The translations under genes and the position numbers were made by a program. Positions 10,641 to 60,260 of a stretch of DNA of 64,000 nt are shown here, piece after piece. Under the pieces are notes generated by a model. It was not told where the DNA came from. It made no database searches and was given only the letters and a program-made list of their open reading frames with translations. This DNA comes from Ostreococcus lucimarinus (Eukaryota), in assembly GCA_000092065.1 (NCBI GenBank), contig CP000586.1. One strand, written 5' to 3'. How positions within the stretch are numbered: the stretch's first letter is position 1; each line of letters opens with the position of its first letter.

Positions 10641-10739
10641 CGCGGTTGCTCGCGTTCGTTCGCGGCGGCCTTTGAATCACCTCGTCCTCCCCGAGCGCGC
10701 CGATCGGTCCGCACCGCGCCGCACCGCGGGCGCGCCGTC

Positions 10740-10880
10740 CGTCGGTTCGGCACGCCGCCGCCTCGCGTTCGTCCTCGCGTCGCGTCGGCGCGTTCGAGGT
10801 CGCGTCGCGTCGGCGCGGTCGTCCTCGCGTCGCGTCGGCGCGGTCGACCTCGCGTCGCGTCGTTCGCCGTCGTCGTCTCG
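10740..10880. repeat. Tandem ~22-24-bp GC-rich repeat (consensus ~GTCCTCGCGTCGCGTCGGCGCG, ~4 copies) in the divergent intergenic region between RPC8 and the cyclase gene
   Basis: Read directly: cgttcgtcctcgcgtcgcgtcggcgcgttcgaggtcgcgtcgcgtcggcgcggtcgtcctcgcgtcgcgtcggcgcggtcgacctcgcgtcgcgtcg. Confidence 0.7.
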
Positions 10881-11216
10881 CCCGCGTCGGCGTCGCGGTG
10901 TGCCATCCAACCGCGACGGGCGCCGACGCGCCGATGCGCCGATGCGCGCGACGACGGCCATCGCAATCGAACGCGAATGCGACTGCGTCAGAAGACGTCG
11001 GTGCGCGCGACGTCCCGTCGGACGGGACGCGCGACGCGTGGGATGGCGCCGACGCGACGACGCGGACGCCGACGCGGCGCGGGCGACGACGCGCGCGACG
11101 ACGACGCGGATGGGTGCGATTTCAGTCGACGGTTGGCGCGAGGCGCGACGACGACGACGAAATTGAAGACGAACGCGGTGACGAATGCGCGACGACGACG
11201 CGCGCGTGGACGCGGT

Positions 11217-14200
11217 ATGGCGTGGAGGGTGGTAGCGGTGATAACGTGCGCGACGTCGTGGACGTGGGCGACGGTGTCGGCGAACGCCGTGACGTTGATC
11301 GGCGCCGGCGCGTCCTTTCCGGCGAGCGTGTACGGAGAGGCGATGAGCGCGTACGCGCAGGCGACGGCGAACGTGACGGTGACGTATAACTCATTTGGAA
11401 GTGGAAGTGGATTGTGTCGAATACAAAACGCCAGCGTGGAGTGTACGGATAGTAAAGGCGTGGACGAGGTAGATTTCGCGTGCAGTGACGCGTTGTTGAA
11501 TGATACGGCGTACGCGGCGTACCCCGATTTACAGATGTACCCCGTCATCGCAGGAGCGGTGGCGTTGGTGTACAATCTCCCAGACTCTACGTATAGCGGC
11601 ACGGCGACGGTGCTTAAATTCCTTAAATTCGACGCCAACGCCTTGTTGGGGGTGTTTTTGGGAAATATCACGCGTTGGAACGACGCCGCGATAACGGCGT
11701 TGAATCCGACGATGACGCTTCCGAACGAGTTGATCAAAATAGTGGTGCGTCAAGACAGTTCTGGGACGACGGAGGCTTGGACAAGTGCTTTATCGACGAT
11801 GAATGCATCTTTTGCGAGCGGGGTGGGGACGTCAAAGCTACCCGACTGGTCCGCGGTGTTGTCGAGTTACGTGACGAGATCTCAAGGGATCGGTGTCACG
11901 TCCTACGTCAAGGCGACGAATTACTCGTTGGGCTATGCCGTTTTGGCTGACGCAAACGCGGTGAACGCATCCATCGCTGGTTACGTTCACGCAGGCACCT
12001 CAACAGCGGTGCTCCCAAACTCTGCGTCGATTTTGCAAGCCGTGAAGACGCGAGGATTGCAATTTGGCAACAACGGCGACAACCCGGTGCGCCTGACGGC
12101 CACCATCGCTCCGGTGCTCACGAATGCTTTAGCTTGGCCGTTTACGACGTACTCGTACGTCGTATTGCGGACTGGTATGGTTGGCTTCACGGAGAGCGAT
12201 CGATTACGAGCCGGGGCGTCTTGTGAAAACGTGAAGCAGACAGTGGCGTTCTGGAACTGGTTTCTCACGAGCGCACAATCGTCGCGAATCGCCGAACAAC
12301 ATGGCTTTGCTGCGATGCACGACGAAATAGGCGCGCTTGTGTCTGCAAGACTCATCGCAGATGTCTATTGTCAAGGGACTCGCGTCGCGGCTGTGACAAC
12401 ATCAACCACTGTACAGGCTATACAGGTCGGAGTCACTGCTCCAGTCACACTCAATAGGCTTCTGTACTCGTTACGCGCCCTGTACGAAGCGTACAATTCG
12501 AGCTCAACGCTCGCCATTAGAGAACTGACCACTGCGGAGGGCGCACTGGCAAATATCCTTGCCGATAACGGTATGGCGATTGGGATTGATTTGGTTGGCA
12601 CTCCTCTCGCCGCTCTATCAAGGCTACCGTTGTTCTCGATTGAGGCACGAATGGGACTGAATAAAGGTGTTCTTCAATTAGGAGCGACAGGGACGACTCT
12701 GGCGCTCGACTCTGTGGCCGTCGCGGCAATTTTAAGCGGCGACGCCACGACGTGGGGGCATCCCGAAATAGTGCGCTTGAACACCTTTTTAAACGGGGTA
12801 ACGGCACCAATCGTCTTGGCTGGCATTCTCGATCCCGAAGCAAATGCATTCTATCGCACTTACCTTTCACAACTGGTCACTGCAAACGCTTCTTTTACGT
12901 TGGCTACACCGAGCTTTCGTGGGTTGTCATATTCTGAAGTCGCTGCTTTTGTTGTTGAAACTCCAAGCTCGATCGCTTTTCTTCCTGGAGACGTAGTGAA
13001 TGCTTTTAAGCCTTATCTGTCGTCGTCGAGCGCGTTGAGTAACCTCGCGGCTACCCAAATGGATGTGTATTACAAACCAGTCAATAGCGGCGCAGAGTGT
13101 GGGGGGGCAATGCGCCAGGCGCTCAAATCCATGCTCAGCATGTTAGAATGGATGGCTTCCGACACCGATGTACAAGGTATTATTACAGAAGCTGGTGTGA
13201 CGCCATCGTTTGCCTCATCACCGGCTGTGCTGCAGACATTTTTATCGAATGTGCGAAGCGTGACGTGCAACGGCGTCTCCATTCTGAATCCACAAAATGC
13301 GCAGTCGTCGGCTGCGTTGAGTGTGAGTCCACTGATAATGGCCCTATCTGTTGGCCTTGGGTTGTTGACGTTCGCGATGTTCGCATTCTTTGGAGGGGCA
13401 CTGCTGAAAAGTTTATTTGTCCAGACAATTTTGAATCAATACAAGCGCTCGCATCCTCCAACCGATGCGGAAGTCACAATCGTCGTCACAGACGTCCAAG
13501 CTTCGACGCAGCTTTGGCAAAAAGCTTCGGTTCACATGAATCGGGCTCTTGCAATACACGACAAAATAATGCGGGCGGCGATTCATCAAACATTTGGTTA
13601 TGAGGTTTTGACGGAAGGAGACAGTTTTGTCATCGCGTTCCACTCTGCAGGAGATGCGCTCAAGTTCGCGATGCTGGTTCAAGAGCGCATGCAAAACTAC
13701 GCCTGGGACTCACCGCTCATTAGAGTGTGTAATGAAGTCTACGACGCGTACGACGCAGAAATCTTCGAGCAAGCTACACAAGGTCGCAACTTTAAGGCAA
13801 AGGAACTTTTACTCAACGCCGTTTCGAGTCGTAGAGTGATTCAAGAAGACACCATGTACGACGAAGGCGACGTGAGTACTCATGCTGGTAGAGGACAAAT
13901 GAATGCGTTTAGAGTTCCTCTCGGGGCGAAGGCTAGTCCCTTGAGTGAAATTCCTAAGATTCACGGTCTTCGCGTACGTATCGGCATGCATACCGGATTC
14001 TGTCAGAGCAGAACGCATCCCACGACGCGACGACGAGAATACTACAAGGGGGCCGTGACGATTGCCAGCGCCGTCTCCGATTGTGCCACTGGTGGTCAGA
14101 CTGTGATTTCAGGGGAAACAATGGCGGCGATACTAGGTGAGATCAAAGAAACGTCCCGAGCTTTCCATGCGCTTCACATGGGACGCCATCAAATGGGGTT

Positions 14201-16226
14201 GAACGCCAAAGAGCTGGATTTGACGGAGGCTGTCGACGAGAGAACCGTGCAAGTTGACGGCAAGGTTGGGCTGGACGACTCGTCAGCGCCTACTGACGAC
14301 GTCACGTTTGCGCTGACCACGGATAGCACAAGACTAAGATGGCGTGCGTCCGATTCTGAAACATCGACAGAGGAAGGCTCGTTGGAAGTGAACCCGGCGT
14401 ACCGCTACGCGCAAAACGCGAAAGTCTCAATCATAAAGAAGGTGGCTTACGATAAAATACACCAGACGAGTCTATTCCAGTCCGAGCTGGTGCAAGCCGT
14501 GCCGAAGTCGCTTGCAACTCGTTTGGCGTTATTCTCTAATCTGCGCACTGTGCGTCAATTGGAGCCATCTTATTATGATTCGCCAGGACTGAACGATATG
14601 AAAGTCACCATCGTTTTCACGTACATCGAAGGTTTGAAGGAACTCAGCGTGGCATTAAAGGACGTGATGGAAGACTCCGTGGGTCTTCTAAATGCGGCTG
14701 TGCGCGCCACGCTACCAGTTTTTAACGGTTACGAGTCTAGAGAATCAAATGGCGAATTTTTGCTCGCTTTCCACTCGCCCAATGATGCGTACAAATGGGC
14801 TCTTCTTGCTCAAAGCGCGTTCATGAAGCTCGACTGGCCGAAAAAACTGTTGACGCATCGGAGCGCGAGACGCATGCGCAATGGAAGACGCGACGTATTC
14901 TTTGGACTCCGCGTGGGGATGGGTGTATGTTCTGGTAAGTGTGCCGACATCAGACCATGTATCCGCACCGGACGCTCCGAGTATTTCGGTGCAATCTTGA
15001 ATTTTGCGTCGAGGGTTGCACGCAGCGCCAAAGGTGGGCAAATTTTAACAGATTATGAAACCTTGAAATCGGCCATTCAAAACGATTATGTGGTTGAATT
15101 TTGTCACGATCTAGGAATGTACCAATTTAAGGGCATCGACAACACCGTACGAGTCATTCAAGTCTCCGACGCGTCGCTGATGATGCGTTCTTTTGAGGAA
15201 ATTGACGCAATCCAAGTCGCACCGCCGGTTGGATTGGATGAAGATCGCGATTTAAGGTCGCAAACACGGAGTGACGATCGTTCAAGTGTATGTATTTTGT
15301 TGTGTACGGCTAAATCACCACTGATAAAGATTGTGCAGTCGTTGGTGCGAGCCATTCGTAAAGAGATACAAGTCGTCAGTGCGCAGAGGATCGACGACGT
15401 CGTCAGTCAATTAAGACATCGTAATTCAGCTGGCCTCATTCATAACCACATGGTGATTGTTTCTGATGAGATCGAACGTTTAGACGTCGTGGATGCTTGC
15501 CGACAAATCCGCAGAAAACTCAACTTGTTTATGCAGCCGAGGCTCGCAGTGTACGCTTCACTCCTAAACGATCTCGACGCTGAACAGCTCGGCATTGACT
15601 GCCTTTTGCCTACTTTGGATGCACCTTTTGACGCTAGTTCATCCCGCAATTCATATGTCGATGGTGATAGTGATTCGGAGTACGAAGAAGATATGATTGC
15701 GTTCAAACAAGTGGTTGAATCTTTCCTTTTGGGAGAAGCGAGCGAGAGTGGCTTGGGCGTCTTGCAAAGGCTGTCAGAATCAGGCGGTATTGCATCAGCA
15801 CCGACTCTTGAAGCGAATCAAAACGATGAGAAACTACCAACGTTCAAACAAGCGCCCGTGCCAACTCATAACAAGCCGCTTTTGAGCATGTCCAACATTG
15901 GGATGTTGACTACGACGCTTGAGGCGGTTTGCGCAAGAGCTTTCGCAATCGACGTGAATCAACAGCTCATATTTGCTACGCGCCGCGCCGTGAAGGCTGG
16001 TGTGGGCGCTTCTTCGGGACCACTTCCGCCATCAGACTGGCTATCTCGAGTAAGTACTGTCGCTGCGAAGGCGCAAAGGGGTATACTCCGTCAGTCTTGG
16101 GTTGAAACGATAAAAGGCAGTTGGCTCGACGAAAATTCAGAGGACGAATACGTCGACGCCGTGCACAAACCGATTCGTCTCGGCGATGATTTCGCAGTTG
16201 TTTTAGTGACTTTGCAAAGTCGTTGA
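11217..16226 (+). CDS. Receptor-type nucleotidyl cyclase. Layout: signal peptide, extracellular PstS-like phosphate-binding (type II PBP) domain plus a second degenerate PBP-like region, one TM helix, cyclase homology domain 1, cyclase homology domain 2, degenerate receiver-like domain (~1669 aa)
   Basis: ORF 10341..16226(+). Upstream of ATG 11217 is GC artefact overlapping RPC8. MAWRVVAVITCATSWTWATVSA is signal-peptide-like. PstS hallmarks: GAGASFPASVY…VTYNSFGSGSGL…VDFACSD…, ITRWNDAAITALNP, IKIVVRQDSSGTTEAWT, WPFTTYSYVVL. TM helix PLIMALSVGLGLLTFAMFAFFGGALL. CHD1: TIVVTDVQASTQLW…GYEVLTEGDSFVIAFHS (both metal-binding Asp present; the Asn/Arg pair is absent from the aligned GAVTIASAV segment). 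CHD2: KVTIVFTYIEGL…ESNGEFLLAFHS…RVGMGVCSGKC…SEYFGAILNFASRVARSAKGGQILTD (Asn/Arg present, metal Asp residues replaced). Receiver-like: CILLCTAKSPLIKIVQSLVRAIRKEIQVV…HMVIVSDEIERLDVVDACRQIRRKL…LLPTLDAPF. Confidence 0.8.
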   Translation: MAWRVVAVITCATSWTWATVSANAVTLIGAGASFPASVYGEAMSAYAQATANVTVTYNSFGSGSGLCRIQNASVECTDSKGVDEVDFACSDALLNDTAYAAYPDLQMYPVIAGAVALVYNLPDSTYSGTATVLKFLKFDANALLGVFLGNITRWNDAAITALNPTMTLPNELIKIVVRQDSSGTTEAWTSALSTMNASFASGVGTSKLPDWSAVLSSYVTRSQGIGVTSYVKATNYSLGYAVLADANAVNASIAGYVHAGTSTAVLPNSASILQAVKTRGLQFGNNGDNPVRLTATIAPVLTNALAWPFTTYSYVVLRTGMVGFTESDRLRAGASCENVKQTVAFWNWFLTSAQSSRIAEQHGFAAMHDEIGALVSARLIADVYCQGTRVAAVTTSTTVQAIQVGVTAPVTLNRLLYSLRALYEAYNSSSTLAIRELTTAEGALANILADNGMAIGIDLVGTPLAALSRLPLFSIEARMGLNKGVLQLGATGTTLALDSVAVAAILSGDATTWGHPEIVRLNTFLNGVTAPIVLAGILDPEANAFYRTYLSQLVTANASFTLATPSFRGLSYSEVAAFVVETPSSIAFLPGDVVNAFKPYLSSSSALSNLAATQMDVYYKPVNSGAECGGAMRQALKSMLSMLEWMASDTDVQGIITEAGVTPSFASSPAVLQTFLSNVRSVTCNGVSILNPQNAQSSAALSVSPLIMALSVGLGLLTFAMFAFFGGALLKSLFVQTILNQYKRSHPPTDAEVTIVVTDVQASTQLWQKASVHMNRALAIHDKIMRAAIHQTFGYEVLTEGDSFVIAFHSAGDALKFAMLVQERMQNYAWDSPLIRVCNEVYDAYDAEIFEQATQGRNFKAKELLLNAVSSRRVIQEDTMYDEGDVSTHAGRGQMNAFRVPLGAKASPLSEIPKIHGLRVRIGMHTGFCQSRTHPTTRRREYYKGAVTIASAVSDCATGGQTVISGETMAAILGEIKETSRAFHALHMGRHQMGLNAKELDLTEAVDERTVQVDGKVGLDDSSAPTDDVTFALTTDSTRLRWRASDSETSTEEGSLEVNPAYRYAQNAKVSIIKKVAYDKIHQTSLFQSELVQAVPKSLATRLALFSNLRTVRQLEPSYYDSPGLNDMKVTIVFTYIEGLKELSVALKDVMEDSVGLLNAAVRATLPVFNGYESRESNGEFLLAFHSPNDAYKWALLAQSAFMKLDWPKKLLTHRSARRMRNGRRDVFFGLRVGMGVCSGKCADIRPCIRTGRSEYFGAILNFASRVARSAKGGQILTDYETLKSAIQNDYVVEFCHDLGMYQFKGIDNTVRVIQVSDASLMMRSFEEIDAIQVAPPVGLDEDRDLRSQTRSDDRSSVCILLCTAKSPLIKIVQSLVRAIRKEIQVVSAQRIDDVVSQLRHRNSAGLIHNHMVIVSDEIERLDVVDACRQIRRKLNLFMQPRLAVYASLLNDLDAEQLGIDCLLPTLDAPFDASSSRNSYVDGDSDSEYEEDMIAFKQVVESFLLGEASESGLGVLQRLSESGGIASAPTLEANQNDEKLPTFKQAPVPTHNKPLLSMSNIGMLTTTLEAVCARAFAIDVNQQLIFATRRAVKAGVGASSGPLPPSDWLSRVSTVAAKAQRGILRQSWVETIKGSWLDENSEDEYVDAVHKPIRLGDDFAVVLVTLQSR

Positions 16227-19989: not shown

Positions 19990-20246
19990 CGCCGACGCCA
20001 GACGCGCGTGCGCGGCGCCTAGTCCGCCGCGCGCGCGTCTGGCGATGACGCGTGTGGCGGTTGGCGCGTTCGGGCGCGCGGCGCGCGCGCGCGCGGCGGA
20101 CTAGGGTTAGAGCTTGGAGTCAACGCGCGCGCGCGAAAGGATGGACCGTCGCGATCGGACGTGCTTTTATACAATTCTAAACGCTCGCCGCGCTCGCGCG
20201 CTCGCGCGCGTCCGCGGCGGCGCGATTCAAACGCCGCGCGGCGACG

Positions 20247-20540
20247 CTAGGAAAACGCCCACCGCGCGAAGAAGACGAAGACGAAGACCAAGCACACGAC
20301 TTGCCAAAAATATCCCTGCCTTCTCGCCTGCTCCACGACCTGCGCGAACGCGCGCGCGCTTTCTCTCAGAGCGTCTCTCGCTCGCGCGAAGTCATCGCTC
20401 TGTTCGTCGAGCATTCTTCGCTGCGCGCCGACTTCGTCGTGAATGTCGATGGTGATGTTCTTCAGCGCCGACGCGCGTTCGCTCACGCGGTCGATGTCTC
20501 GATCGTTTTCGCGCTCCATCGCGCGCGTCGCGGCGTGCAT
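20247..20540 (-). CDS. Tail-anchored Qc-SNARE of the Bet1/SFT1 type (~97 aa from MHAAT...). It may extend 5' into the Asp/Thr-rich low-complexity region up to 20810
   Basis: SNARE heptad region ENDRDIDRVSERASALKNITIDIHDEVGAQRRMLDEQSDDFARARDALRESARAFAQV, followed by a single C-terminal TM helix (YFWQVVCLVFVFVFFARWAF) and the stop. The layout matches Bet1/Sft1. Confidence 0.6.
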   Translation of the reverse strand: MHAATRAMERENDRDIDRVSERASALKNITIDIHDEVGAQRRMLDEQSDDFARARDALRESARAFAQVVEQARRQGYFWQVVCLVFVFVFFARWAFS

Positions 20541-20890
20541 CGCGCGTCGGCGACCGCGCTCTGTCGCCGTCGTCGTCGCGTCGTCGTCAGTCGCGTCGTC
20601 GTCGGTCGTCGTCCATCGTCGTCGTCGTCCATCGTCGTCGTCGTCCAGCGTCCATCGCGCATCGTTCGCGTCGTTCGCGTCGCGCGTCGTTCGCGTCCGT
20701 CGCGCGACCTCGCGATCGATTCGCGCGCGTTCCGTCGTCCACCGCGCGCGCGTCGCACCTCTCGCGCGTCCGCGCGCGTCGTCGCGCGTCGCGACGTGCC
20801 GCTCGACCAACGGCTGCGGGACGACGGAACGCGACGCGCGATGCGCTGACGCCGACGCGCGAGAGGTGCGACGCGCGACGCGCTCGAACG

Positions 20891-25270: not shown

Positions 25271-26094
25271 CGCGTCGTCGTCGTCGTCGTCTGCGGTGAC
25301 GAAGTCGACGCATCCATCCGGCCGGCGATCCCATCCCAGCCATCGTCCGCTCGAGTCCCCCTCGCGACGGTTCACGACTCGTCCGCGTCGACGCCCGTTC
25401 GCCCGCGCGTCACTGCGCGACGCGACGCGACGCGACGGACGACGGACGACGGACGACGGACGACGCGCGAGCGCGCGAGCGACGAACGGTGAACGACCGC
25501 GGTGCGACGCGCGACGCGACGCGACGCGAGGACGCGACGCGAGGACGCGCGCGACGGATGATTCGGATTCGCATTCAAAAGGGGAACGGCTGTCGAACGA
25601 CGACCGACGACGACGACGACCGACGACGACGACTGACGAAGACACCGACATCGCGCGCGCGACGGGGTGAAATAGGACGAGGATACATGTTTCGCAGACG
25701 AGAGACGGCGGGTGGGATGGCGACGCCGACGGCGTTGCGGACGGCGACGAACGACGACGGGGACGAAGCGCGGACGCCGACGCCGCTGAGAAGCGCGTTG
25801 AAGAAGGGTGCGAGACGCGACGCGACGCGACGCGATGCGATGGGTGAGGGATGGGCAATGCATGCGCGACGATGATCTATCGATGACGCGCGACTGACGG
25901 ATGGGCGAACGCGCGCAGGTGGATTGAGTAAAGCTCGCGTCGTCGTGGAGAGCGACGGGTTCAAGTATAAAAAACGCAAGAGCGCGAAGGGCGCGCTGGG
26001 GGTGACTATTTCGGAGCCGCTTTGGGCGATCGAACGGGCGTCTTCGCGCGCGTTGGTGGTGGGAGCGACGACGACGTCTTCGAACGGCGCGCAC

Positions 26095-26727
26095 ATGTCG
26101 TCCGATGAAGCGCGCGGAAGGGAAGATTTCCACGAACAACTTCCAAACAACATGCCCGAAGACGAGCGCATGCAACTGCTGTGCGAGAGCGTGTGCGCGG
26201 CGGAGTGCGCGGCGGTGGTGCCGCAGTTGAAGGGCGACAACGCGTTCGCGGCGAACGCGATTAGTGACGCGTTACAAGAGTTTCAGTTGCGCGTCGAGCA
26301 GTTATTGATTGATGAGGAGGTAAAGTTTGCCGAAGGACCGCAAACCGTCGCGGCGAAGATTGACGCGCGCAAGGCGCAGTTGCGAGCGCTCCGAGACGCG
26401 CTCGAGCAAGAGTCCACGCAGTGGTCTTGCATGCTCGAAGGTTCGGCGAAAAAAGTCACCGCGGAGGTGCCCGTCATAGATACCTCCGAACTCGGTCCGA
26501 GCGAAGCCGGTTCGCTCGCCGAGGCGTGCGAAAACACCCAGCGACGGTTGCTGTTACAAACCGAAGGCGCGAGAGGCTTGGTCGAAGGCGTCGAGAGTTT
26601 GTGCGTCCGCGCCGAGCGCGCGTGTGAAGTTTTCGCGAGTGCGATCGCCGCGAACGATTTCCGTTCGCTGCCGTCGTACCAGTCACCGCACCGATTAATC
26701 TCGAGTCTCATCGGAGGCGCGAGGTAA
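26095..26727 (+). CDS. Hypothetical protein (~210 aa from ATG MSSDEARG...; the track start at 25924 is a TTG)
   Basis: Mixed-composition helical ORF (…LQEFQLRVEQLLIDEEVKFAEGPQTVAAKIDARKAQLRALRDALEQ…). No family recognised. Confidence 0.3.
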   Translation: MSSDEARGREDFHEQLPNNMPEDERMQLLCESVCAAECAAVVPQLKGDNAFAANAISDALQEFQLRVEQLLIDEEVKFAEGPQTVAAKIDARKAQLRALRDALEQESTQWSCMLEGSAKKVTAEVPVIDTSELGPSEAGSLAEACENTQRRLLLQTEGARGLVEGVESLCVRAERACEVFASAIAANDFRSLPSYQSPHRLISSLIGGAR

Positions 26728-35098: not shown

Positions 35099-35698
35099 AC
35101 CGCCAAGACTGGCGACTGACGTCCTCGACGAGCGTTTCGCGTCGCGGCGGTCGATGTCAAACCTCGTCTCGCGTGTACTTTACATCTTTAACCCGCGTCC
35201 ACCGGTGGTGTGATCGCCGTGGAATCACCACCAGATCGACGCAATGTTTAATAACGTCACGATTCACACTCTCTGGCGCCACGTCTCGCCGCGTCGCCGC
35301 GCGCGTTCGCCCGTTCGGCGATGGTTCCAATCGACACACACGGACCTTTGAATCCGAGTCACCGACGCGCGGAATCGCGGGTTCATTCCCTCGCGCGTCA
35401 ACATGTTCACCGTTCAAGCCACGCAAATCGTCACCACGGTGCGCATCGACGCACGCTCTCGCGCCCGTTCGTTTCGGCGCGTCACACCGCGGCGCGCGCG
35501 CGACGCGCGCGTCGCACGACGCCGCGACGATCATCGGAGATAGCGTATCTGGACGATCCCGAACGATCGAGACCGACGCCGCGGGACGCGCGCGCGAACG
35601 GCGCGTCGCGCGACGAAGCGGCGCGAATAAATACCTCGCGATGCGCTCGCGAGGCGAACGAACGCGAAGACTGACGCGCGACGCGCTCGCGATCGCAG

Positions 35699-36082
35699 GC
35701 TAAGGCGCCGACGACGAAGCCCGCGAAGCGCGTCCAAAAGGCGGCGTCGCTCGGCTTGGCCGCCGTCGTCGCGGTTTCGCTTCAAGTCGCCCCGGCTCGC
35801 GCCGATCTCACCTCCGATTTGCTCGCGAAGACGGAAGCGAACAAGGAGTTGAACGATAAGAAGCGCGCCGCGACGTCGAGCGCGAACTTTGAACGCTCTC
35901 GCACCGTCACGGATGGGTTTTGCAACTTTCCGCAAAACATCTTCGGGTGCGAAAACGCCGCGGAGAAGGGCGACGTCAAGTTTTTGTCCGACGATTTGAA
36001 GGTCGAGTGCGAAGGCACGGATGCCGGTAAAATCTGCGCCAGCAAGAACTCTGGTTCGTACCCGTCCTTCCTCGGTTTGTAA
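35699..36082 (+). CDS. psaN: Photosystem I reaction-centre subunit N (PsaN). This is the second/last exon with the lumenal-targeting hydrophobic stretch and the mature protein. Exon 1 is probably 35403..35438
   Basis: Mature part KTEANKELNDKKRAATSSANFERSRTVTDGFCNFPQNIFGCENAAEKGDVKFLSDDLKVECEGTDAGKICASKN is collinear with plant PsaN (…KTNKELNDKKRLATSGANFARA…FGSCKFPENFTGC…ECEGKD…). It is preceded by the thylakoid-transfer-like AAVVAVSLQVAPARA. The track start at 35756 is a TTG. In frame upstream there is no ATG before a TGA at 35672, but a CGCAG acceptor with an ACTGAC branch ends at 35698. A candidate exon 1 (ATG 35403, MFTVQATQIVTT, GTGCGC donor at 35439) is in phase. Confidence 0.8.
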   Translation, partial: AKAPTTKPAKRVQKAASLGLAAVVAVSLQVAPARADLTSDLLAKTEANKELNDKKRAATSSANFERSRTVTDGFCNFPQNIFGCENAAEKGDVKFLSDDLKVECEGTDAGKICASKNSGSYPSFLGL

Positions 36083-43143: not shown

Positions 43144-43162
43144 ATGGTGCGGTCGCGCGCGC

Positions 43163-43193
<31 letters not shown>

Positions 43194-46100
43194 ACGCGAC
43201 GACGTCGACGCGCGCGCGCGGGTCGCGGACGGACGACGAGGGACGGACGCGCGCGAACGCGCGGACGACGGGCGCGGGTCACGGTTTCCGAGAGACGCGC
43301 GCGCGGCGACGCGCGCGGACGCGACGCGCGGGACGCGCGAGACGGCGCGGACGTCGACGCGAGAGGACGATGGAGACGACGCGCGAGTAGACGATGGGGA
43401 CGACGGCGACGCGGGACGCGCGCGGAGGGACGCGCGACGGCGAACGGTGATGCGGGCGAAGACGCGCGCGCGATTCGACGACGACGAGAGAGGCGAGGAG
43501 ACGTTGGCGGATTTCGCGTTCGGACGGGACGTCGCGACGCGAGAATGCGTTCCGGATTTTGTGAAGCGTCCGGTAGACGCGTGGGGACGCGCGCGCGGGA
43601 GAGGTGGACTCGACGCGGCGATGTATAGATTGTCGAACGCGATGGACGACGGCCGATTCGATCCGTCGAGTTTGCGAATTGAAGACGGCGATTTTTCAAA
43701 GATTAACGGTGAGTTTGCGAAGCAGTTTTGGAGAATTAAGATGCAGTTGATGGATTGCGTCGTGATGGTAAAGCACGGATCGTTCTATAACATGTTTGAT
43801 GTGGACGCCGACGCCGGGAAGGCGGTTGGACTTCAGCAGACGGGGACGAATTCAGGATTCATGCGCAAGGTTGGCTGTCGGGCGGAGTCGTTCGATACGT
43901 GGGCGGCTCGTTTACTCGCTCGTGGGTACACGGTTGCCCGGGTGGAACAGATGAGCGAAGCGGCGAGAGAGACCTCGGTGATGAAGCGGGAGTGTTGCGA
44001 AATATTGACTCCCTCGCTCGATCGCGGGCTGACGAACAACGAGCGCGCGAATTTCTTCATCACCATCGCGGGAAGCTCCGTGAAATCTTTGCACTCGTGC
44101 GACTATTTGGGTGTGTGCGCGGTTGACGCAGATTCTGGCACCGCCGCGTTGGGTGTCGTGACGCCTCAAGATCTGCACACCGTCTTGGTGCAATACGAGC
44201 CACGAGAGGTCGTGATTAGTGAACAGCTTTCTGACGACGCGAGAAAGATGCTCGTGTCGTACGTGCGTGAAGGCGGTGACGCGACAGACTGCGTTTTACG
44301 CGTTATAGAACGTGGCAAAGTGAAAAACCCGTCGATCGAGCGCTCGAACATTCTGAATTGGTTCAAATATCACACCGACGAGCCCGTTTCAAATATTCTT
44401 CAGGAAGCCACTGAGGCAGAGTTACGAGCCGTCGGCTTTGCGATGCGTCATCTCGCTTGGTGTGGTGTGTTGCAAGACGTCTTTTCTCGAACAAAGTTTA
44501 TGTCCATAGTGTCTGTTGAGCCAAGACGAACGAATGCTGAAGAAAACCAGTCGGCTTTTGCGCTCTCGCGCGAGCTCACGCACGTCATGCGACTCGATGG
44601 CGACGCGATCAAGAACTTGCACTTGCTCTATGGCGACACTGGGAAGACTACGGGTTCGCTCTACGAGTTTCTTAATCACACGTTTACCGCTCCCGGTCGT
44701 CGACGGCTGCGACAATGGCTTCTCCGTCCGCTACAAGATGTGCGCGCCATCGACGCTCGCCTGGACGTCGTGCGAGAGTTCTCCAACAATCACGTCTTGC
44801 TACAAACTTTCCGTGACAGACTCAAGCACTTCAAGTGGGACCACGAGCGACTTTTCGCAAAGTCGTGTCGATTGGCTATCAAGTGTACGAAAGTGTACAA
44901 TATCGTTCGATTCAATCAAACGTCGCCGTTGACGCAAGAAGACGAGATGGGTCTCAGAGAACTCGCGCCGAAAGGCGCGACGAAGCTCGAAGAGATTCTT
45001 ATCGACGCTGTGAATATGATTAGCTTTTGGGAAATGCACAAAAGCGCACTTGTTACATTTGTGGACTTGGTTCGCGCGTTGATCGAGATACGCGACGTGG
45101 TTTCCACCTTGAGTGAAATTGCAGAGCGTAACGTCTCCGTTGCGAGCTTACATCGCGACGTCGAAGACGCGATATCGTTTCTTCGTGAGTTGCGTTCGTG
45201 TCTAGAAGATAGACGGAAAGAAAACACGAAAAACAAAGAAAGATACATCGTTCCAAGCGCACTTGTGTTTCGTGACTACGGTGAGTTTGCGGCGGCGGCG
45301 GAGCGAGAGAGAGCGCAAGATCCAATAGTTCGAAAACACGCGCAGCGCCAACGGCGAGAACTGCTGAGAAACATTTACATTCCACTCAGCGATGATGACG
45401 AGCGAGACGATGAAGAGCAAGACGCGGCCGACCGCGCTGACTTAGCGGCGGCTAACGCATTTACTGAAGTGATGCATGCCTTTTACGAAGAAATCCCTCG
45501 TTTTGAACGAGTGGTGAGCGCCATGGCAGATTTAGACGTTTTACAAAGTTTTGCCACGTCTTGTGCGTCTTCAAGAGGTGCTGTTGGTTTCACTCGACCA
45601 CGTTTTACTACTGACACATCCTCGAGTACTTTAGAGCTCGTCTGCAGTTGGCACCCTCTACTCAAGCCGAGTATGGTGGACGACGCCAAGAGAATCACGC
45701 ATAACAGTGGCATCGTCGATAATGATGTATCGATGAAGACGCCCTTCGTGCTTCTTACTGGTCCTAATATGTCGGGAAAATCTTCCATACTACGCCAAGT
45801 TGCTATTATTGTCATCATGGCGCAAATTGGTTGCTACGTTCCCGCGGCATCTTGCGAAATCAGCGTGGCCGACGCTGTGATGACCCGACTTGGCGGCGAC
45901 GACAATTTCGCCAACGGCGTAAGCACATTTTTGAACGAAATGAAAAGTACGGCGAAAATCATGAACGACGTAACTTCGTCTACACTGGTCATACTTGATG
46001 AACTGGGCAGAGGTACGTCTACCTTGGATGGCTACTCGATCGCATTCGCGACGAGCCTTGAATTATGCTCTTGTGCTCAAGCTCCTCGCGTGTTGTTCGC

Positions 46101-50763: not shown

Positions 50764-51690
50764 ATGCGCGCGTCGTCGCGCGCGTCGGCGACGCGCGTCG
50801 CGCGCGTCGCGCGCGTCGACGCGAGGCGGCCGCGGGCTCGAGCGCGCGCGCGCGCGCGCGACGGTGCCGGCGACGACGACGACGCATCCGCGCTGGACAT
50901 GGACGCGCTGCGAGCGCGCGTCCGCGCGCTGGCGAAGCGCGAAGAAGCGCTGGAAACGCTGCGCATCGTCGTGCTGGACGCGAGCGTGCCGAAACAAGTG
51001 CTGCCGCTGGAGTTCGACGGCGCGAACGTCGAGAGGACGCTCAACGCGGGGACGGCGCTCGGGCGAGACGCGCGCGTGGGCGATCGATTCGGGATGCTCG
51101 GGCAAGCGCCGAGCAACGGACAGATACTGCCGAACGGAGTGGAGGTGACGGTGACGCGAGCGATGGTTCGGCCGAACGGGGGGGAGAGTTTGATCGAACT
51201 CACGGCGTCGCGGCGGTTTAAAATCGTGGGGGCTCCGTTCGAGGACGAGGCGAACGGATCGGCGCCGAGCGCGAGGGTGTGCTGGATTCCCGATACCGAA
51301 GGCGCGGGCGAGCAAACCGTCGCGGGCGGCGTGGAGGAGCCGGGCGCGGTGGATCCCGCCGAGTGCGACGCCGAGTGCGCGGCGCTCGCCGCGGAGCTTC
51401 CCGCGCTCGTCGACGAATGGCGGGCGCTGGTGATTTCGAGAAAGCGCGAGCGTCAGCCCGATCAGTTGAAGTTGATCTTATCGCAAATCGGCGACATCCC
51501 TGGGTCGAACCGACCGGCCGAGCTCTCGCTTTGGGTCGCCGCGCTCATCAACCCGATTCCCGCCCTCGGCGTGGCGTACGAGATTCGTCCGGCGATCCTG
51601 TGCGCGCCGACGACGGGTCACATGGTTCGCATCGCGTCCCAAGGCATCAAACTTTCCATCAACAGTCTGCGCGACGGGCCTCAAATTTGA
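50764..51690 (+). CDS. LON N-terminal (LON substrate-binding / PUA-like) domain protein with an Ala/Arg-rich presequence (308 aa)
   Basis: [28 protein letters not shown]… and …[40 protein letters not shown] resemble stand-alone LON-N domain proteins. A mixed-composition ORF within an otherwise GC-artefact region. Confidence 0.55.
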
Positions 51691-51973: not shown

Positions 51974-53125
51974 ATGTCCCGCGGTGCCGGCGCCGGATAC
52001 GATCGGCACATCACCGTATTCTCTCCCGAAGGACGTCTGTACCAAGTCGGTGCGTGTTCGCGCGCGCGCCGACGCCTCCTCGCGCCGTCACCTCGCCCGC
52101 GACGCGCGACGTTCACCGACGAAACGATCTCACCGACTGACCGCGATTCGACGACTTTCGACGCGCAGAGTACGCGTTCAAGGCGATCAAATCCGTCGGC
52201 GTCACCACCATCGGCGTGCGAGGGAAAGACTCCGTGTGCGTCGTGACGCAGAAGAAGATTCCGGTGCGCGAAACGGGCGAACGCGAGGGCGAAGAACGAT
52301 CTCGTCGGCGAACGCGAAGGCGCGAACGCGCTCGAGACGACGCGGGAGGGATCGACCGCGCTGGATCCCGCGAACGCGCGCGCGAGAGGAAGACTGACGC
52401 GTGGTGTGTGATCGGACGTCGCGCGAGCGCAGGATAAATTGATCGATGCGTCGGATGTGACGCACATGTATAAGATTACGAAAACCGTGGGCATGTGCGC
52501 GACGGGAAAAGGACGTACGTTTTCGTTTTCGTCGCTCGGCGGCTTTGTTTGAATGAACACGTACGCGCGCCCGCGCGAGCGCGACTTTTCGCTCGACCGA
52601 TCGACTGACGACTGCTCGCGTCGATTTCGTTTCGCAGCGGATATCCGAGACATAGTACAAAAGGCGCGCAGAAAGGCGGCGGATTTCAAGCAACACTACG
52701 GGTACGAGGTCCCGGTGGACGTGTTGGCGAACATACTCGCCGATGAGTTCCAGGTGTACACGCAGCACGCATACATGCGTCCGCTCGCGGTGATGGTGAT
52801 ATTAATCGCCGTAGATGAGGATCGCGGGCCGAGTCTGTTCAAGTGCGATCCGGCAGGATACTTTGTCGGTTACAGCGCGACGAGCGCGGGGGCGAAGGAG
52901 GTCGAGGCGGTGAACTTCTTGGAGAAGAAGGTCAAGAGCGGCGCATCGTTCGATGTGAATCAGACGGCCCAGCTCGCGATCAGCGCTCTTCAGCACGTGC
53001 TCGGGGAAGAGGTCAAGGCGAGCGAGTTAGAAGTCGCCGTCGTCACGGCGGACAATCCCAATTTCCGCGTCATCAGCGAGAGCGAAGTGGAAGATCATTT
53101 GACATCGATTTCTGAGAGAGACTAG
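51974..53125 (+). CDS. PSMA6: Proteasome subunit alpha type-6 (PSMA6/alpha-1), 246 aa in four exons: join(51974..52049, 52169..52263, 52433..52514, 52638..53125)
   Basis: Exon 1 [25 protein letters not shown]; exon 2 [32 protein letters not shown]; exon 3 [27 protein letters not shown]; exon 4 (P)[98 protein letters not shown]…ISERD. All four are collinear with PSMA6 and total 246 codons. Introns of 119, 169 and 123 bp begin GTGCGTG, GTGCGCG and GTACGT, contain ACTGAC ~25-40 nt before the 3' end, and end CGCAG. Phases were checked against the track frames. Confidence 0.85.
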
Positions 53126-55658: not shown

Positions 55659-57364
55659 CTAAACGTGCGGAAGGTTGCGCGACGGCGAGCGCACGCGCGA
55701 GGCGGCGGCTTGGCTCAAATCTGCGAAAGGATCGCTCGCGGGCGATCGCGAGGGCGCGGCGCGAGAGGGCGTCGGCGGCGAGACGGAGTCGCGCGCGAAC
55801 GCGGCGGGATTCATCGGTCGCATGCCCTCCGGGAGCGGTCTGGCCGGTCGATACCGCTCGTCGGCGAACATCGGGTTGGTCTGCATCGGAGGCGGCGACG
55901 GTGACGTCGTCGACGGGAAGTGAACGATCGGACGCGGCGGGGTGGGACCGGCGGCAAATGGATTGGACGACGACGACGACGGTCCGGCGATGGAAGCCGT
56001 CGGCAAGACGTCGCCGAAAGGGTTCGCGGAGCTTTGGCTCGTCGTCGTGGCGGCGGTGGACGCTCGCATGACGTCGTCGAGTTCGCTCAGTAAACTTTCC
56101 GCCGTGTGCGTTCGCGTCGCGGCCACTGGCGCGGCGAGTCGAGCCCGCGATGCGACGTCGCCCGCCGCGGCTTTCACGAGCAAATCGTATCGTTCCATCT
56201 CCTTGGTCAACTCGTCGTTCAAATGTATGGCGCTCGCGAGCAAGCCCTCGTCTTCGGCGTTCGAGATAAGCTCGATCAGACGTGGCTGCATCGCGCGGCA
56301 CTGCTCCGAGAGCTCGTTCGCTAAACTAGACGGAGACGGCGGGCGAAGGGCGACGCAGCCGTCGAGGACTTGCGTGAACACCTTGAGCGAATTCGTCGCG
56401 ACGGCGATGTCGCCCTTCAATTTTTCTACGTCTTGCGAATTGTACGTCGTCGACACGGATGTCGTGGCGCGAGATGCCTCGGCAGCGGCTGTGCGCTCGC
56501 TTTCGCGAAGCGCTCTCTGTAATTCGCTCTCAGCGCGGTCCGCGAGTCGTCCCGAGGCGTGCGGCGAGCTCAGATGCGGCGCTCGCACGGGCGTACCCAT
56601 GGCGATGTTCCCAGGGTAAATCCCGTGTCTTTGACGCTGCACCGGTGTCATTGCTTCTTCTTCGTCTTCCTCGAGCGCGCGCGCGATCGCGGCTCGATCC
56701 TCCTCGGAGATATCTTCTCTCTTCGACCAGTCGCCGCCGCCGTTCCAGTCCTCGCGAGCCGCCGACGACGTCGCCCCCCGCGCCACCGACCGTCGCTCAA
56801 CCTCGGGAAACTGAAACCCACGCGCGCGCAACTGATGAAACGCCCCCGCGAACGCGGGCTCTCGCCTCAAATTTACCGCCCACTCGTGAACCAACGCCAA
56901 GGTCTTGTCGCGAACCTCCAAATTCGGCGCTCTCTCGCACAACCGCACCATCGTCTCCGGCACCTCCTTCGCCACCGCCATCGCGTGAAACCGTCCTCCG
57001 CAGTTCTTCATGCACATCTCCAGCGCGAACAGCGCCTTGAGCGTCGCGTCCGCGTCCATCACCGCCCGTCCCTTCGTCGGCGCCGTCAGCTTTGCCCGCA
57101 GCGCCTTGACGCAATCCTTCCCGTGCGCGACGAAATCATCGTTCACGCAGTCGCACAGCCGCAGATTAATCTCCAGCGCGTCATCGACCGTTCGTCTCGC
57201 GCCCGATTTGCACGCCTGCGTCGCGTCGCGCGTCGTCGTCGTCGTCAGTCGTCGCGTCGTCTCCGACAGAATCAGAATTCGTCACAGCGTCGCGCACGCA
57301 CGTGATCGACGATTTTGTACGCCAAGCGGTCGCTCTTATCGTTCAGGAACATCGTCTTGAGCAT
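55659..57364 (-). CDS. VHS + GAT domain protein (TOM1-like/TOL) in two exons: complement(join(55659..57215, 57302..57364)), with an 86-bp intron
   Basis: VHS: …DDALEINLRLCDCVNDDFVAHGKDCVKALRAKL…ATLKALFALEMCMKNCGGRFHAMAVAKEVPETMVRL…KTLALVHEWAVNL. GAT-like helices follow (…DVEKLKGDIAVATNSLKVFTQVLD…LSEQCRAMQPRLIELI…). The track start at 57146 is a GTG. The in-frame extension runs into a CGCAG acceptor (minus strand, ending at plus 57216) preceded by GACTGAC. Upstream ORF 57272..57478(-) supplies MLKTMFLNDKSDRLAYKIVDH, ending exactly at a GTGCGTG donor (plus 57301). The spliced N-terminus aligns with the TOM1 VHS start (M…RIEKAT…). Confidence 0.7.
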
Positions 57365-59504: not shown

Positions 59505-59583
59505 ATGCCGTCGGCGTCGACGTCGTCGTCGATCGACGATTCCGCGCCGCTCGCCGCGATCGCGCGCGCGATCGCGCGCGACG

Positions 59584-59615
<32 letters not shown>

Positions 59616-60260
59616 CGCGACGCCGACGGTATCGGCGCGCGCGCGATCGCGGCGCGCCTGGACGCGACGGCGGAATCGTCGCAAAGAAAAAATGCGCCGA
59701 CGGACGCGTCGAAACCGCGACCGCGACCGCCGAAACCGGATTGGGGGTGCGCGCGGTGCGGGACGCGCGTGAACGTCGTGCGGTGGCACAGCGCGGACGC
59801 GAAGTGGTACTACCATCACAGCCGCACGCGCATGTGCAGGCGGTGCGAACGCGAACGCGAGGCGCGAGAGCGCGGAAGACGCGAGGCGGCGGCGACGACG
59901 ACGACGACGACGCGCGACTACGACGACGACGACCACGACGACCACGCCGACGACGACGGGACGGCGAGCGACGACGACGGGACGGACGACGACGCGCGCT
60001 TCGGCCGGGTCGCGCGAGCGACGCGACGACGGCGGTGCGGCCAGTGCGGCTCTCAGACGAACGTGGAGACGTTCGACGCGAAGACGCGACGGTGGACGTG
60101 GACGCGACCGAAGACGCGCATGTGCGAGGGGTGCGACGAGGCGTACGAGGACGCGGCGCGCGCGTACGAGGCGATTTTCGCGAGCGAGACGCGCGCGCGC
60201 GACGGCGAACCGGCCCTCGCGCCGGCGCCGCCGACGTTCGTGTACGACGTCGCGGATTAG
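59505..60260 (+). CDS. Hypothetical protein with two C-x2-C-x24-C-x2-C zinc-finger-like motifs and a poly-Asp tract (~251 aa from ATG MPSAST)
   Basis: CARCGTRVNVVRWHSADAKWYYHHSRTRMCRRC and CGQCGSQTNVETFDAKTRRWTWTRPKTRMCEGC are repeated Cys4 units with conserved Trp/Arg spacing. The upstream part of ORF 58545.. overlaps the minus-strand gene and is probably artefact. Confidence 0.3.

Follow-up and report, generated by a model that had tools for sequence, protein, structure and literature searches.

Three short introns near the 5' end of the PSMA6 gene of Ostreococcus lucimarinus are very probably ancestral spliceosomal introns and not introner copies

Introduction

The genome of Ostreococcus lucimarinus is poor in introns, and those located outside chromosome 2 carry strong signals. 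An atypical donor consensus, GTGCGTG, has been described for them (Irimia & Roy 2008, PLoS Genet, PMC2483917), and among those confirmed by ESTs 87% contain ACTGAC and 66.5% contain GACTGACG (Irimia & Roy 2008, PMC2483917), the latter being cited as the canonical branch motif of Ostreococcus (Verhelst et al. 2013, PMC3879977). A preference for GYGCGY donors extends across the Mamiellales, where the U1 snRNA is standard and unmodified in its pairing region (2022 preprint, bioRxiv 10.1101/2022.06.08.495308). Yeast-like intron-poor genomes likewise show near-invariant signals and a concentration of introns at the 5' ends of genes, with different motifs, GTATGT and TACTAAC in place of GTGCGTG and GACTGACG.

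The related genus Micromonas has introners, operationally defined by blastn similarity at E<=1e-5 that extends to both intron boundaries, in families of at least four (Gozashti et al. 2022, PMC9860276). Introners, such as the Micromonas introner elements IE-A to IE-D (PMC3879977; Simmons 2015, PMC4540971; Huff 2016), are similar along the whole intron, occur in hundreds to thousands of copies at lineage-specific sites, and have target-site duplications and terminal inverted repeats if derived from transposons; IE-C of Micromonas commoda carries the GACTGACG branch motif (Verhelst 2013, PMC3879977). In the part of Dataset S1 of Gozashti et al. (2022) consulted here, a column that we take to score introners gives 0 for O. 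tauri, O. mediterraneus and Bathycoccus prasinos and 1 for three Micromonas species; O. lucimarinus CCE9901 is among the genomes surveyed and is not among the introner-bearing rows of that part.

Here we consider the introns in a 64-kb stretch (64,000 nucleotides, referred to as the window in what follows) that forms a telomere-proximal chromosome end of O. lucimarinus CCE9901. An original prediction, made from the sequence of the window alone, had proposed that stereotyped short introns interrupt several genes close to their 5' ends, and had raised the question of whether the three introns of one of these genes, PSMA6, belong to a repetitive introner-like family. The very end of the chromosome is marked by approximately 35 copies of CCCTAAA, the plant-type telomere repeat, at positions 1-245, and the first open reading frames of the window begin within a few hundred bases of this array.

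Results and Discussion

The PSMA6 gene lies at 51974-53125 and is divided as follows.

51974..52049, + strand: exon 1, codons 1-25 plus 1 nt
52050..52168, + strand: intron 1, 119 nt, phase 1, GTGCGTG ... CCGACTGACC ... GCGCAG
52169..52263, + strand: exon 2, codons 26-57
52264..52432, + strand: intron 2, 169 nt, phase 0, GTGCGCG ... AAGACTGACG ... GCGCAG
52433..52514, + strand: exon 3, codons 58-84 plus 1 nt
52515..52637, + strand: intron 3, 123 nt, phase 1, GTACGT ... TCGACTGACG ... TCGCAG
52638..53125, + strand: exon 4, codons 85-246 plus stop; intronless in O. lucimarinus

Joining 51974-52049, 52169-52263, 52433-52514 and 52638-53125 (+) produces a coding sequence of 741 nt and a protein of 246 residues, as had been predicted for removal of three introns of 119-169 bp, and the product is letter-for-letter identical to XP_001418143.1 of O. 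lucimarinus CCE9901. Pfam recovers both Proteasome_A_N (PF10584, E=3e-15) and Proteasome (PF00227, E=6e-43) in the spliced protein, which is 90% identical to the O. tauri 'Proteasome A-type subunit' and 63-66% identical to plant alpha type-6 subunits. Judged from its sequence, the gene is the full-length orthologue of proteasome subunit alpha type-6 (PSMA6, also alpha-1 or PAA). Removal of the three introns from the mRNA is predicted on the basis of the RefSeq annotation, the ungapped alignment with orthologues and a catalogue protein (P0001, 95% identical to PSMA6) that spans all three junctions and whose origin from a transcript is assumed from its look.

The signals of these introns agree with the original description, coordinates included. 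The donors are GTGCGTG, GTGCGCG and GTACGT (that is, GTGCGYG/GTACGT), all three introns end in CAG, more fully CGCAG, and the distance from the start of ACTGAC to the 3' end is 33, 40 and 34 nt in introns 1, 2 and 3, respectively, corresponding to 28, 35 and 29 nt from the branch A. They thus fit a GT-AG class with a GTGCGTG-like consensus, and resemble the canonical introns of the same species outside chromosome 2 (PMC2483917) in donor, branch motif, a short and constrained branch-to-acceptor distance and GT-AG ends. The departures, GTACGT for GTGCGT in intron 3 and GACTGACC for GACTGACG in intron 1, lie within the published variation. The signature is therefore not new, having been the published O. 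lucimarinus consensus since 2008.

Three further genes of the window have introns of the same kind.

35439..35698, + strand: PsaN intron, 260 nt, phase 0, after codon 12; GTGCGC ... AAGACTGACG ... TCGCAG
35403-35438 and 35699-36082, + strand: PsaN exons; spliced protein equals XP_001418138.1; Pfam PsaN
57216..57301, - strand: VHS/GAT intron, 86 nt, phase 0, after codon 21; GTGCGTG ... ACGACTGACG ... GACGCAG
57302-57364 and 55659-57215, - strand: VHS/GAT exons; spliced protein equals XP_001418360.1; Pfam VHS and GAT
25808..25918, + strand: sixth intron, 111 nt, phase 1, after codon 40; GTGCGAG ... GCGACTGACG ... GCGCAG
25687-25807 and 25919-26727, + strand: exons of the uncharacterised gene with the sixth intron; spliced protein equals XP_001418133.1
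16063..16096, - strand: seventh match to GACTGACG...CGCAG, assigned to no intron; inside the opposite-strand ORF 10341-16226 and overlapping the 3' end of that ORF

The acceptor at 35698 and the intron at 57216..57301 account for the N-termini that open reading frames lack in PsaN and VHS/GAT, respectively, as had been proposed, and in both cases the spliced protein is identical to the RefSeq entry. Of ten long ORFs of the window compared by exact sequence, six are represented in the protein collection, one of them under the name O. lucimarinus CCE9901 (XP_001418357.1). GACTGAC is found in all six introns, with the branch A placed 21-35 nt from the 3' end, and all six fall within the first 85 codons of their genes (after codons 12, 21, 25, 40, 57 and 84).

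How unusual the signature is can be gauged from 200 dinucleotide shuffles of the window. GACTGAC followed by CGCAG 15-40 nt further on occurs seven times, compared with a mean of 0.44 and a maximum of 4 in the shuffled sequences, a 16-fold excess over expectation in the 64 kb, and six of the seven matches are annotated introns. By itself, GACTGAC is not enriched in the window (11 observed versus 8.6 expected). With a chance expectation of 0.44, a single fortuitous match would be no surprise, and the seventh could be either this or an intron in a 3'-UTR; it is located 240 nt 3' of the stop of the tubulin-chaperone-D gene (to 16302), and GTGATT directly follows that stop. Nine more candidate combinations of donor, branch and acceptor in the window were set aside because the frames that they opened encoded nothing but Arg-rich junk. 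Neither Rfam nor a tRNA scan gave a match in the window, which thus contains no snRNA gene through which co-evolution with the atypical donor could be followed. A GC-rich gap of approximately 900 bp (19990-20890), between the divergent chaperone-D and molybdenum-cofactor genes, has GACTGAC at 20586-20592 (-) and many (GAC)n runs, and could conceal a small gene or a 5' exon.

The possibility that the gene models are mistaken and that the signature arises by coincidence from the composition of a GC-rich genome, for which one might cite the long spurious ORFs that GC-rich DNA yields and the lack of enrichment of GACTGAC alone, can practically be set aside given the excess of the compound signature, the full-length, ungapped orthologues of PSMA6, PsaN and VHS/GAT that splicing produces, each identical to its RefSeq model, and the junction-spanning P0001.

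In order to place the PSMA6 introns among those of other green organisms we have relied on exact spliced mapping and on a metagenome scan for PSMA6 loci followed by exon mapping. The protein alignment is gapless through column 187, so that residue numbers can be compared directly across taxa. Expressed as residue/phase, the introns of O. lucimarinus are located at 25/1, 57/0 and 84/1, and the very same three positions are occupied in Coccomyxa viridis, Selaginella moellendorffii and the crucifer Microthlaspi, each of which has 4-5 further introns downstream, in the part of the gene that corresponds to exon 4 and that contains none in O. lucimarinus. O. tauri has the same three introns, of 127, 163 and 136 nt. 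Lengths in the surveyed lineages, in the order introns 1, 2 and 3, are listed below.

O. lucimarinus-type (L042-L047): 119 / 169 / 123 nt
O. lucimarinus sister strain (L041): 100 / 179 / 123 nt
Ostreococcus-grade lineage X (L003-L006, L049-L053/L054): 129 / 140-143 nt / absent (precise loss)
Ostreococcus-grade lineage Y (L066-L068, L089): 106-122 / 136 / 144-146 nt
Ostreococcus-grade lineage Z (L069): 109 / 109 / 153 nt
Micromonas pusilla clade (L080): 130 / 111 / 129 nt
Bathycoccus-like (L015-L040, L048): no introns

The site and phase of intron 1 are common to O. tauri, four other Ostreococcus-grade lineages, the Micromonas pusilla clade, Coccomyxa, Selaginella and the crucifer, and position 57/0 is found in every intron-bearing taxon examined. 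Position 84/1 is occupied in O. tauri, lineages Y and Z, Micromonas, Coccomyxa, Selaginella and the crucifer, and is empty in lineage X. The assignment of L080 follows from its spliced PSMA6, 95% identical to a Micromonas pusilla protein (MMETSP transcriptome). An apparent absence of introns from Micromonas, read from intronless Micromonas-like contigs (L007-L010), was dropped, as the genomic L080 has all three; those contigs are probably derived from transcripts.

Two further observations were made in the survey. Intron 3 has been lost precisely in lineage X, whose PSMA6 is approximately 90% identical (L003, 3220-3260), and its loss could serve as a clade marker. The Bathycoccus-like genomic contigs (GC approximately 0.47, with a second form at approximately 0.38), up to 94 kb in length, carry an intronless PSMA6, for example at 1501-2241 of L017.

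The orthologous sites are thus occupied in relatives as distant as land plants, so that the introns are not recent lineage-specific insertions, and the exact sharing of position and phase among Micromonas, Coccomyxa, Selaginella and the crucifer implies that they are ancestral to the green lineage. We are therefore highly confident that the three PSMA6 introns are ordinary U2-type spliceosomal introns, inherited vertically from a green-plant ancestor, and not introner copies. An ancestral PSMA6 with approximately eight introns would have been reduced in Ostreococcus and Micromonas to the three closest to the 5' end, and subsequent losses would have been differential, of intron 3 in one Ostreococcus lineage and of all three in the Bathycoccus-like lineage. 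The 3' bias of the pattern suggests that loss may have proceeded by a mechanism mediated by reverse transcripts. Introns of intron-poor genomes typically cluster towards 5' ends, a bias for which reverse-transcript-mediated loss starting from the 3' end is the usual explanation. As in nearly all introns of this genome outside chromosome 2, the splice signals are near-invariant (donor GTGCGYG/GTACGT, branch GACTGAC(G), branch-to-acceptor distance of approximately 20-35 nt, acceptor CGCAG), a state to which we infer that they have been driven, with the remainder of each intron free to drift.

The divergence of orthologous introns fits such a course. The sister strain L041 has a PSMA6 protein that is essentially identical to that of the window (100% after rounding), and its introns are 78-88% identical to those of the window, from which it follows that intron interiors evolve fast. 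Intron 1 can be aligned over its full length with its orthologues from O. tauri and lineage X, at approximately 70% identity. Median z scores for alignments of intron interiors are 21.8 for the same intron within a clade, 0.49 for the same intron between clades and 0.82 for different introns of one genome; the sole outlier, L041 intron 1 against intron 3 (z=4.9), is an alignment of a (CG)n-rich stretch. In multiple alignments of orthologous introns only GTRCG, GACTGAC and CAG are invariant or nearly so. This is the pattern of conservation that vertical descent with constraint on the splice signals alone would predict. GATCTCG just 5' of GACTGAC is semi-conserved in orthologues of intron 1 only (L067/L089/L049/L041), reflecting either residual orthology or local constraint.

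A relic of introner activity could still be sought in the signals themselves, since IE-C has the same GACTGACG: GTGCGTG and GACTGACG would then derive in part from an old and by now fully degenerate burst of Mamiellales introners. We regard this as very unlikely. If it were true, introns away from ancestral positions (e.g. those of PsaN, VHS/GAT and XP_001418133) would have arisen in this way; for the three PSMA6 introns such an origin is excluded because their positions are ancestral.

Shared positions might in principle also result from parallel gain, with the Mamiellales having acquired introns at the same three sites as plants, at favored proto-splice sites, rather than having retained them. 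Occasional gains at identical sites are known, and the patchy presence of the introns, with none of the three in the Bathycoccus-like lineage, would be compatible with gain. Yet exact agreement of position and phase at all three sites, within 85 codons and in four deeply separated green lineages, is very hard to obtain in this manner; the flanking exon bases (GTCG|, TCCG| and GGAC|) are not AG|G proto-splice sites, and loss explains the patchiness more simply, lineage X providing an example in its precise loss of intron 3. Parallel gain is, in our estimation, most improbable, and retention remains the reading that we adopt.

The introner question that had been raised by the original prediction calls for a comparison of the introns with one another. 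The three share a length class (119-169 nt), strong and identical signals and short strings, AACGATCTC in introns 1 and 2 and CGACTGAC and TTTCG in introns 1 and 3, as would be expected were they recent copies of an introner-like mobile element whose likeness stems from one ancestor element, and it is in the related genus Micromonas that introners, among them IE-C with its GACTGACG, are found (PMC3879977). We have compared a set of 11 introns by a test patterned after the introner definition of Gozashti et al. 2022 (similarity by blastn at E<=1e-5 that extends to both boundaries). On this set the PSMA6 introns match each other with a best E of 0.12-0.16, below the introner threshold of similarity; the best pair of any kind within a genome has E=4.5e-4 and is confined to the branch-to-acceptor signals, and the only introns that pass are orthologous ones from other species. 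Pairwise local alignments of the window introns against dinucleotide shuffles yield no significant pair, with a median interior z of 0.23.

The shared strings do exist, and they amount to no more than composition gives. Intron 3 lacks AACGATCTC, and the offsets of this string in introns 1 and 2 (73/119 and 31/169, respectively) are not collinear; a 9-mer is shared by two or more of the three introns in 94% of dinucleotide shuffles. Likewise, when introns 1 and 3 are compared from branch to acceptor, the similarity has P=0.64 and ranks 13th of 55 tail pairs. When the clustering check is run on the window introns and their orthologues, non-orthologous introns have only the generic donor, branch and acceptor signals in common.

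Searches for the marks of a mobile element gave a similar result. For target-site duplications and terminal inverted repeats, direct repeats at the junctions reach at most 4-5 nt and inverted words 4-6 nt, within shuffle expectation. Apart from the telomere array, a repeat search across the window returned nothing but low-complexity (CG)n/(GAC)n sequence, and blastn-short of the three PSMA6 introns against the whole window only (CG)n-type matches of 10-25 nt. Spurious 'similarities' between introns are mostly due to such low-complexity tracts. Tracts of (CG)n, (GAC)n and (CGCGA)n abound in the window, in its coding as well as its noncoding DNA (e.g. 43149-43232, 59566-59995 and 50840-50884).

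The suggestion of an introner-like family thus finds no support in similarity or in target-site duplications and terminal inverted repeats, and runs counter to intron positions conserved from Micromonas to land plants. Introners resemble one another along their whole length, and the PSMA6 introns have no mutual similarity past the signals, the short words in common being expected by chance; introners occupy lineage-specific sites, and here Micromonas, Coccomyxa, Selaginella and the crucifer carry introns at the same three positions and in the same phases. Those introns that do align are orthologous and not paralogous, and other Ostreococcus score 0 in the consulted part of Dataset S1 of Gozashti et al. 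2022 if its column has the meaning that we have taken it to have. Membership of the three introns in such a family is exceedingly unlikely, and they resemble the Micromonas introner elements only in what is generic to the Mamiellales, namely similar lengths and GYGCGT-type donors.

Concluding Remarks

The gene models discussed here entered RefSeq with the 2007 genome, and a description of the signature followed in 2008, so that the present results matter little as a discovery. Their use is more practical. It had been pointed out that models based on open reading frames alone miss the 5' exons of PSMA6, PsaN and VHS/GAT, which short stereotyped introns near the 5' ends interrupt, and this is indeed the case: with the surviving introns confined to the first 85 codons, it is the short 5' exons that ORF-based callers miss. 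Prokaryote-style calls on metagenome contigs of this alga give PSMA6 proteins of 191 or 178 aa, a PsaN of 108 aa and a VHS protein of 495 aa, on hundreds of contigs. Public catalogues of metagenome proteins contain Ostreococcus entries with such 5' truncations by the hundreds (clusters P0212, P0217, P0227, P0231 and P0241-P0248), the reason being that prokaryotic gene callers ignore short introns. A scan for GTRCG…GACTGAC…CAG would recover missed Ostreococcus 5' exons in marine metagenomes. PSMA6 offers a clean and small example of ancestral 5' introns that have been retained, with differential loss among wild Mamiellales lineages.
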